64,000 bases of DNA from a virus, in IMG/VR virus record IMGVR_UViG_3300030044_000011, one strand, 5' to 3'. Shown piece after piece: positions 3,554 through 4,603 of this stretch. Position 1 is the first letter of the stretch, and every line of letters begins with the position of its first letter. A program made the translations under genes and the position numbers. The notes beneath the pieces are model-generated. The model worked only from the letters and a program-made list of their open reading frames with translations. It was not told where the DNA came from and did not search any database.

Positions 3554-3743
3554 CACCGGGGATGAGAAAGTGGAAATTAGGGAAGTTGGAAATCAACCCT
3601 TCATCACATCCCGGCGTGGCCGCACGGGATGCTGAGGTCTCTAGTGGACTTCAGTCCCGTGCAACATAGGGCACGGTCGAAACGAACGGGTTGGTCGTGT
3701 GAAACTCATATATACATAATACACAGAAAGTCGGTAAGTTCAA
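3554..3743 (-). promoter_or_regulatory. promoter and putative attenuator of the Pro/Met tRNA array
   Basis: TTGAAC-16-TATTAT; alternative pairings 1:2, 2:3, 3:4, 4:5. Confidence 0.65.
3641..3709 (-). CDS. leader peptide MSFTRPTRSFRPCPMLHGTEVH
   Basis: ATG 6 nt after the -10 box (leaderless); Pro codons CCA, CCG, CCT. Confidence 0.65.
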   Translation of the reverse strand: MSFTRPTRSFRPCPMLHGTEVH

Positions 3744-3845: not shown

Positions 3846-4106
3846 ATGAATCTTGAAGACTTCAAAAATCAACTGAGGATGGACATCCGGCGTATGCAAG
3901 CCGCGTTGGCCGCACTCGAAGGATCAGCAATGGCGGAAACCCCGAAACTATCAGCAAAGACCAAAGAGAAGATTTCCAATAGCATGAAGGCAAACTGGGC
4001 AGGTGGGCGGAAACGTACCTTATCCAAGGCTGTGAAGATCAAGATCGCGGCCTCACAACGTGCCCGTTGGGCGAAGCAGAAGGAAGCAGCAGCAGCGGCG
4101 GCGTAA
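3846..4106 (+). CDS. small basic histone-like DNA-binding protein
   Basis: GGAGG RBS; repeats KISNSMKANWA and KIAASQRARWAK. Confidence 0.75.
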   Translation: MNLEDFKNQLRMDIRRMQAALAALEGSAMAETPKLSAKTKEKISNSMKANWAGGRKRTLSKAVKIKIAASQRARWAKQKEAAAAAA

Positions 4107-4276: not shown

Positions 4277-4603
4277 ATGGATTTTGACGACATTGTTAAC
4301 GAACTCAGGGTTCAGCAGCGCCGGATCAATGCGGCTCTTGTTGCTCTTGTGGGGACGGCTCAGGCCGACGCTCCGGTAACACAACCTGCACCAAAGATCA
4401 CTGCAACCCCCAACCACCGTACAACCCGTCGTTCTTCAATGTCTTCAGGAGTGAAGCGGAAGATTTCGCTTGCCATGAAGCAGAACTGGGCAAGCCGGAA
4501 GCCTAAGCTCAAGTTGTCGCCGGAAATCAAGAGCAAGATTTCTTCCTCACAGAAGGCACGCTGGGCGTCGATCAAGGCAGCGGCTCAACAGATGGCAGCT
4601 TAG
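4277..4603 (+). CDS. small basic histone-like protein, paralog of 3846..4106
   Basis: GAGGAGG RBS; same repeat motif. Confidence 0.75.
   Translation: MDFDDIVNELRVQQRRINAALVALVGTAQADAPVTQPAPKITATPNHRTTRRSSMSSGVKRKISLAMKQNWASRKPKLKLSPEIKSKISSSQKARWASIKAAAQQMAA

Follow-up and report, generated by a model that had tools for sequence, protein, structure and literature searches.

A predicted ribosome-coupled attenuator without a U-tract precedes the Pro/Met/Phe tRNA operon of a jumbo phage

Jumbo phages carry tRNA genes by the dozen, and a short region upstream of one of the tRNA arrays described here bears on why they do so and how they dose the products. The window, by which we mean the whole 64,000-nucleotide stretch that was analysed, belongs to a jumbo phage from environmental metagenomes (JGI samples that we take to be peat), and identical proteins are found on contigs of up to 310 kb. 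It contains 31 tRNAs according to ARAGORN, grouped by amino acid in three minus-strand arrays, as well as a phage-encoded RNase P RNA. The leader discussed below and the operon behind it lie on the minus strand, and their coordinates are given in the direction of transcription. With regard to the host, an IS1-like element on L002 precedes genes for PadR and ADOP-like permeases, as typically found in Acidobacteria (L002:12200-17035), the matches falling just below the curated cut-offs; this junction is only a hint of an Acidobacteria host, and may be an assembly chimera instead.

Two of the arrays, Leu/Tyr and Val/Gly/Ala/Asp/Glu/Cys, share the promoter motif of the leader discussed here, and in both the promoter is followed by a codon-matched short open reading frame and a canonical hairpin-plus-U terminator. 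Sister operons that combine a matched leader with a U-tract terminator carry Val/Gly/Ala/Asp/Glu/Cys, Leu/Tyr, Ser or Trp/His/Arg/Asn/Gln/Lys tRNAs, the leader and terminator of the last having been read in G002. Such codon-matched leaders with canonical terminators are present at L155:900-1100, L157:1712-1867 and L158:1505-1721: a poly-Ser leader ahead of the Ser operon and a Lys/His/Asn/Arg/Gln/Trp leader ahead of its matching operon. In a regular-expression search no leader turned up for the Ile/Thr/Gln or the Lys/amber-tRNA operon, and a search with the promoter motif returned mostly noise, recovering one sister GNN leader (L044). Two or three tRNAs with a CUA (amber) anticodon lie beside tRNA-Lys in L152 and L159 (G001 and G002), and L156 has a tRNA with a UUA anticodon; these are possible suppressors.

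The third array begins with tRNA-Pro genes, and its leader starts with a predicted sigma70-type promoter (3743-3716) bearing the motif of the other tRNA operons: a -35 box, TTGAAC (3743-3738), a spacer of 16 nt, and a -10 box, TATTAT (3721-3716), with TG-TG directly before it. The putative leader ORF (3709-3641) comprises 22 codons and a TAG stop. The initial annotation described it as leaderless, with Pro codons CCA, CCG and CCT, an internal Met, and Arg, Thr and Phe codons, and this reading is correct for the window phage: the ATG at 3709 lies exactly 6 nt past the -10 box, so placed that the start codon would coincide with the transcription start site, and the codons are Pro at 6 (CCA), 12 (CCG) and 14 (CCT), Met at 15, Phe at 3 and 10, Arg at 5, 8 and 11, and Thr at 4, 7 and 19. 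Divergent from this promoter is a pair of paralogous small basic ORFs on the plus strand (3846-4106 and 4277-4603), the first of which has no NCBIfam match.

Downstream of the promoter, five segments with alternative pairings are present where the initial annotation had placed them. Segment 1 (3676-3671), covering the codons for Pro12 and Cys13, pairs with segment 2 (3662-3651), which can pair instead with segment 3 (3635-3622); the TAG stop (3643-3641) sits within the loop of helix 2:3. Segment 3 has segment 2 as its partner in the ON state and segment 4 (3616-3607) in the OFF state. Segment 4 resembles the 5′ acceptor strand of a tRNA-Pro, and its ON partner is segment 5 (3564-3554), which when free has a possible partner in the 5′ end of the first tRNA. 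The interior of helix 4:5 (3606-3565) holds an inner hairpin and most of a C-rich tract devoid of G (3593-3558), a candidate rut site. The motif GTTGATTTCCA occurs in this inner hairpin (at approximately 3597), in an extension of the RNase P RNA and upstream of the GNN promoter (at approximately 44140 and 45565), all on the minus strand; it is possibly a protein-binding loop.

Homologous leaders were collected with DNA patterns and by using a release-factor-like gene of the operon as a synteny anchor, which gave 25 distinct leaders plus another five anchor loci, of which some are nearly identical to members of the 25 (approximately 30 homologues). Most were retrieved with a pattern in which R5-P6 and F-R-P are fixed, and conservation is therefore inflated at those positions; the fair test is provided by the anchor-derived loci, found without a DNA pattern, which keep Pro, Phe and the helices, one of them (L163) reading M-F-P-P with no Arg in region 1. 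All 25 leaders preserve the frame and have Phe at codon 10, their indels are multiples of three, and the distance from the start of segment 2 to the stop is 16-25 nt. The leaderless start claimed initially is lineage-specific and does not extend to most homologues (it is found in about one-third): the ATG is exactly 6 nt after the -10 box, without a Shine-Dalgarno (SD) sequence, in 8 of 25 and in L163 (9 nt in L127), most of the others possessing a 5′ untranslated region of 25-120 nt, mostly with an SD-like motif. In a tree the leader of the window falls in a clade of six leaderless leaders.

The helices covary. In alignment A1, 192 of 192 cells of helix 2:3 are paired (at most 69% in slid controls) and both sides have changed in four of its eight pairs, while helices 1:2 and 3:4 together are 94% paired with five double-change pairs; as the aligned leaders are related, these pair counts are not probabilities. 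Helix 4:5 forms in 21/21 long forms, those with a separate 4-5 domain, and shows covariation at four positions. It is this covariation among homologues that gives support beyond chance, the single-sequence fold of the leader being modest (z = -2.1). That modest value and the lack of any known output element would suit a decayed or non-regulatory leader, an explanation that becomes hardly credible when the frame has been kept and compensatory changes have accumulated in three mutually exclusive helices across some 30 phages. We are highly confident that the switch is genuine and under selection. A pattern search of GTDB genomes gave a single match, in an Actinomycetota metagenome-assembled genome, which fails the leader profile, so that no chromosomal copy was found, and no cis-regulatory family in Rfam (T-box or other) reached the gathering score in the leader. 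We considered a T-box-like specifier in which the inner loop presents a Pro codon, and discarded it; the bases are partly paired, and C-rich loops trivially mimic Pro codons. In L149 an ORF-bearing insertion after segment 4 replaces segment 5 and parts the leader from its tRNAs.

What might the leader peptide sense? Region 1 of the 25 leaders is enriched in Pro (26% of codons vs. 4.4% in phage proteins), Thr (15% vs. 6.7%), Arg (13% vs. 5.0%), Met (11% vs. 2.5%) and Phe (11% vs. 3.9%). All homologous leaders precede tRNA-Pro arrays, followed by Met(CAT) and, where the contig reaches that far, Phe(GAA) as the last tRNA, and so the leader codons match the operon for Pro, Met and Phe and have no match for Arg and Thr. 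The initial annotation had predicted Arg, Thr or Phe tRNAs beyond position 1 of the window. Phe is indeed there: tRNA-Phe(GAA) at L001:14346-14421, approximately 1.7 kb past position 1, closes the operon and is the sole tRNA in that region, being followed by an oppositely oriented gene and a DNA polymerase gene. Arg and Thr belong to separate operons, in two complete relatives the Trp/His/Arg/Asn/Gln/Lys operon and an Ile/Thr/Gln cluster, respectively. Arg is also dispensable in the leader, as L163 lacks it in region 1.

A ribosome-position scan on the nascent RNA, with an assumed footprint of -18 to +13 around the A site, points to codons 9-12 (3685-3674) as the sensing window. In this model, an A site at these codons lets helix 2:3 win over 3:4 in 67-83% of leaders. 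From codon 14 to the stop the figure is 0-17%, so that 3:4 is favoured, as it is in most leaders in the absence of a ribosome. A ribosome stalled at codons 9-12 (M/S/T-F-R-P) is thus predicted to flip the switch to 2:3 plus 4:5. The window phage has S-F-R-P at these codons; 11 of the 25 leaders have M-F-R-P, which brings all three amino acids of the operon together. Codons 4 and 9 are commonly Met, and the invariant Phe10 is encoded by both synonymous codons. The pairings 2:3 plus 4:5 are approximately 10 kcal/mol more stable at equilibrium than the OFF fold, and the OFF state must therefore be kinetic or ribosome-driven.

Intrinsically slow translation of R-P or P-P, depending on EF-P status, Mg2+ or tRNA modification rather than on charged tRNA, could also serve as the input, in the manner of MgtL. 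R-P occurs twice in the leader with CGA codons, the operon has no tRNAs to match the enrichment in Thr and Arg, and MgtL and CorL sense Mg2+ via Pro and acidic residues (PMC11552253). We consider this improbable, as against it stand the invariant Phe10 and the common Met, which match the operon, the dispensability of Arg in L163, and the sister leaders, which match their own tRNAs. The input is most likely a ribosome that decodes Pro, Phe or Met slowly at codons 9-12.

The operon begins with an 88-nt tRNA-Pro(UGG) (3522-3435) whose variable arm is long and whose D arm is atypical. It is followed, between 3422 and 2961, by tRNA-Pro(CGG), tRNA-Pro(GGG), a tRNA with an 8-nt anticodon loop (3231-3156) and a further tRNA-Pro(UGG), and then by a tRNA(CAT) at 2781-2705 (L001:9838-9914), recovered at a relaxed ARAGORN threshold. 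An N-truncated RF1-like release factor gene (2618-2031), which served as the synteny anchor, lies within the operon, which makes its co-regulation with the tRNAs probable. Both ARAGORN and Rfam missed a degenerate tRNA-Pro(CGG)-like sequence at about 1822-1740. Two tRNA(CAT) genes (1039-963 and 326-250) precede the terminal tRNA-Phe. The first tRNA is of the same kind in 21 of 24 homologues: a tRNA-Pro(UGG) measuring 83-86 nt up to the discriminator, again with both arm features. This long-arm tRNA has a class II (Leu/Ser-like) body combined with C1:G72, A73 and CCA, and it scores 28.7 bits, narrowly below the Rfam cut-off of 29. Were it charged with Leu or Ser, this would amount to deliberate misreading of Pro codons. 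In the window, an extra 16-nt tandem copy of its 5′ end (3540-3525) offers segment 5 a decoy partner; the duplication is a strain polymorphism, found in L001, L003 and L004 and not in L002, L005 and L006.

The Met and Phe tRNAs lie 0.9-7 kb downstream, so that operon-wide control is needed, which favours termination of transcription as the output. A candidate internal promoter (1199-1171) ahead of the three distal tRNAs (Met, Met and Phe) complicates this for the window phage. L106 likewise has internal promoter-like sites, approximately 3.3 and 3.9 kb into its operon, and there are none in seven other operons checked. Both phages with such sites have leaders without Met at codon 9 (n = 2), and in both the internal promoter may uncouple the distal Met/Phe tRNAs, which counts against control of the whole operon by Rho termination.

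How the OFF state would stop transcription is less obvious, as the initial annotation had recognised in noting that no U-tract follows helix 3:4; the promoter/terminator scan finds no terminator there either. Helix 3:4 is a GC-rich hairpin (-15 to -21 kcal/mol) and about eight long-form homologues have 3-6 U shortly past it, so that it might be a weak intrinsic terminator assisted by NusA/NusG, with 4:5 serving only to keep segment 4 off the acceptor stems of the tRNAs. Neither the leader in the window nor the short forms have a U tail, and the full U-tracts of the sister operons indicate that the host reads canonical terminators; we give this possibility little weight.

Factor-dependent termination by Rho is the leading hypothesis, by virtue of the architecture and by elimination. 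No Rho gene was found in four relatives, and host Rho is assumed. The initial annotation had proposed a rut-site switch, in which the G-free tract is free when 3:4 forms and enclosed when 4:5 forms. A C-rich tract is present as claimed (36 nt from 3593, 15 of them C) and does open, partially: its 5′ part still pairs with 3606-3594, and enforcing 3:4 raises the expected number of unpaired nucleotides in the tract of the window from 17.1 to 21.5 of 32. Switching exposes little more of it in the long forms, the median gain being 1.4 nt and 1.8 C. Eleven G-free stretches with a length of 30 nt or more and 12 or more C occur on the minus strand of the window, and the tract alone is therefore not exceptional. 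Nor is its length conserved, the 36 nt of the window phage being the extreme compared to 8-24 nt in other long forms; the short-form relatives have no such tract. An optimal rut site has 60-90 nt, although approximately 30 nt is sometimes sufficient (PMC12360218). These points, and the greater stability of 2:3 plus 4:5, weigh against Rho. In its favour are the C-rich nature of the unpaired interior nucleotides (C/G = 2.85 vs. 0.7-0.9 in spacers), the intact frame, the covariation of four helices, the flip in the codon scan, the matched sister leaders and the resemblance to Salmonella corA and mgtA in layout. The leader ORF is itself C-rich (C/G 1.75), and the Rho loading site, if any, may include this ORF or an opened tRNA instead. 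On this analysis we put the chances that the OFF output is termination by host Rho, and not an intrinsic terminator, at about even.

The short forms suggest where else the output may lie. L068, L071 and L057 have no separate 4-5 domain; in them the two acceptor strands of the first tRNA-Pro(UGG) serve as segment 4 (the 5′ strand) and segment 5 (the 3′ strand), and in L068 coupled changes extend across segment 2, segment 3 and both acceptor strands. From its sequence, the tRNA would itself be the expression platform of the switch in these phages. A marker hairpin is found after segment 5 in L143 and L145 and after the first tRNA in L071 and L057, so that the 4-5 domain occupies the slot of the tRNA. 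Trees do not separate a single from a double origin of the short form (p-AU 0.485); the release-factor tree contained no short-form loci.

These observations also bear on a switch of maturation or decay without any termination, in which the OFF state hides the 5′ acceptor strand of the first tRNA-Pro, RNase P is blocked and the precursor decays; the strand would be hidden by segment 3 directly in the short forms and by the freed segment 5 in the long forms. Predicted acceptor pairs collapse in the OFF state in short forms (0.1 vs. 7.0 in ON) and in long forms (median 0.5 vs. 5.8), and 12 of 22 long forms capture the nascent 5′ strand of the tRNA more in OFF while none does so more in ON. The freed segment 5 pairs with the duplicated 16-nt copy in the window and often with the 5′ strand of the next tRNA in long forms. 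The coupled changes in L068, the occupation of the tRNA slot by the 4-5 domain and the RNase P RNA of the phage fit this as well. On the other hand, co-adaptation of segment 5 and the 5′ end of the tRNA is borderline (p = 0.054 and 0.076), failing in L130 and L150 and being weak in L010, and tRNA tertiary structure lies outside the folding model. Taken alone, moreover, such a switch leaves the sensing of Met and Phe for tRNAs kilobases away unexplained, and we regard it as unlikely, if distinctly more credible than a weak terminator. A combined scheme, in which the leader decides whether the acceptor stem of the first tRNA-Pro or its tRNA-mimicking 4:5 stand-in folds, and a misfolded tRNA triggers Rho termination or decay of the operon, is tentatively proposed at somewhat less than even confidence.

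Taking Rho as the preferred output, the leader would act as a ribosome-coupled attenuator of the Pro/Met/Phe tRNA operon. With slow decoding at codons 9-12 the translating ribosome would be held on segment 1, allowing 2:3 to form; segment 4 would then close the 4:5 domain in long forms, or the acceptor stem of the first tRNA-Pro in short forms, and with the RNA behind the ribosome folded, transcription would continue. Fast decoding to the stop, or the absence of a ribosome, would lead to 1:2 and 3:4; the 4:5 or acceptor helix would open, C-rich untranslated RNA would be exposed, and Rho would stop transcription.

The multivalent leader-peptide attenuators of trp (trpL), his (hisL), pheA (pheL), pheST (pheM) and ilvGMEDA follow the same 1:2/2:3/3:4 logic, with control codons in region 1 and the stop codon in the 2:3 loop. 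The phage leader shares with the classical attenuators a short conserved leader ORF, matching control codons and mutually exclusive helices; it differs from the trpL/hisL type in lacking a U-tract after 3:4, in possessing a fifth segment, and in that the regulated products are tRNAs.

Closer in layout are the Salmonella leaders of corA, where stems A+B expose pyrimidine-rich rut RNA that C+D hide (PMC11552253), and of mgtA, likewise controlled through Rho, where Pro codons slow the ribosome in MgtL (PMC12360218). In both, an upstream ORF overlaps the first stem, A+B and C+D are alternatives, and there is no intrinsic terminator. We claim no sequence homology, and Rho is a hypothesis in our case; theirs are chromosomal mRNAs for Mg2+ transporters, whereas the phage has a codon-matched leader on a tRNA operon, with the tRNA supplying the last helix in short forms. 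Mycobacterial leaderless polycysteine sORFs are reported to be Cys-responsive attenuators of operons of protein genes (bioRxiv 10.1101/834739). They would share with the phage leader the use of a leaderless short ORF as an amino-acid-responsive attenuator, and differ in sensing Cys, in regulating protein genes, and in that leaderlessness is optional in the phage leader family.

The sister operon leaders share the promoter motif and a leader rich in the amino acids of their own operon; they end in the canonical hairpin-plus-U, whereas the Pro leader lacks it and is coupled to a tRNA or tRNA-like acceptor helix. The literature that we searched, with few subscription papers in it, yielded no case in which a leader peptide controls tRNA genes and none of a tRNA acting as the output helix of an attenuator. 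Codon-matched attenuation of tRNA arrays is itself not unique to this locus; what is new here is the terminator-less, tRNA-coupled output. The element is shorter than 300 nt and testable in a reporter strain. As each of the five operons with readable leaders has a codon-matched leader, the supply of tRNAs in these phages would track the speed of decoding.
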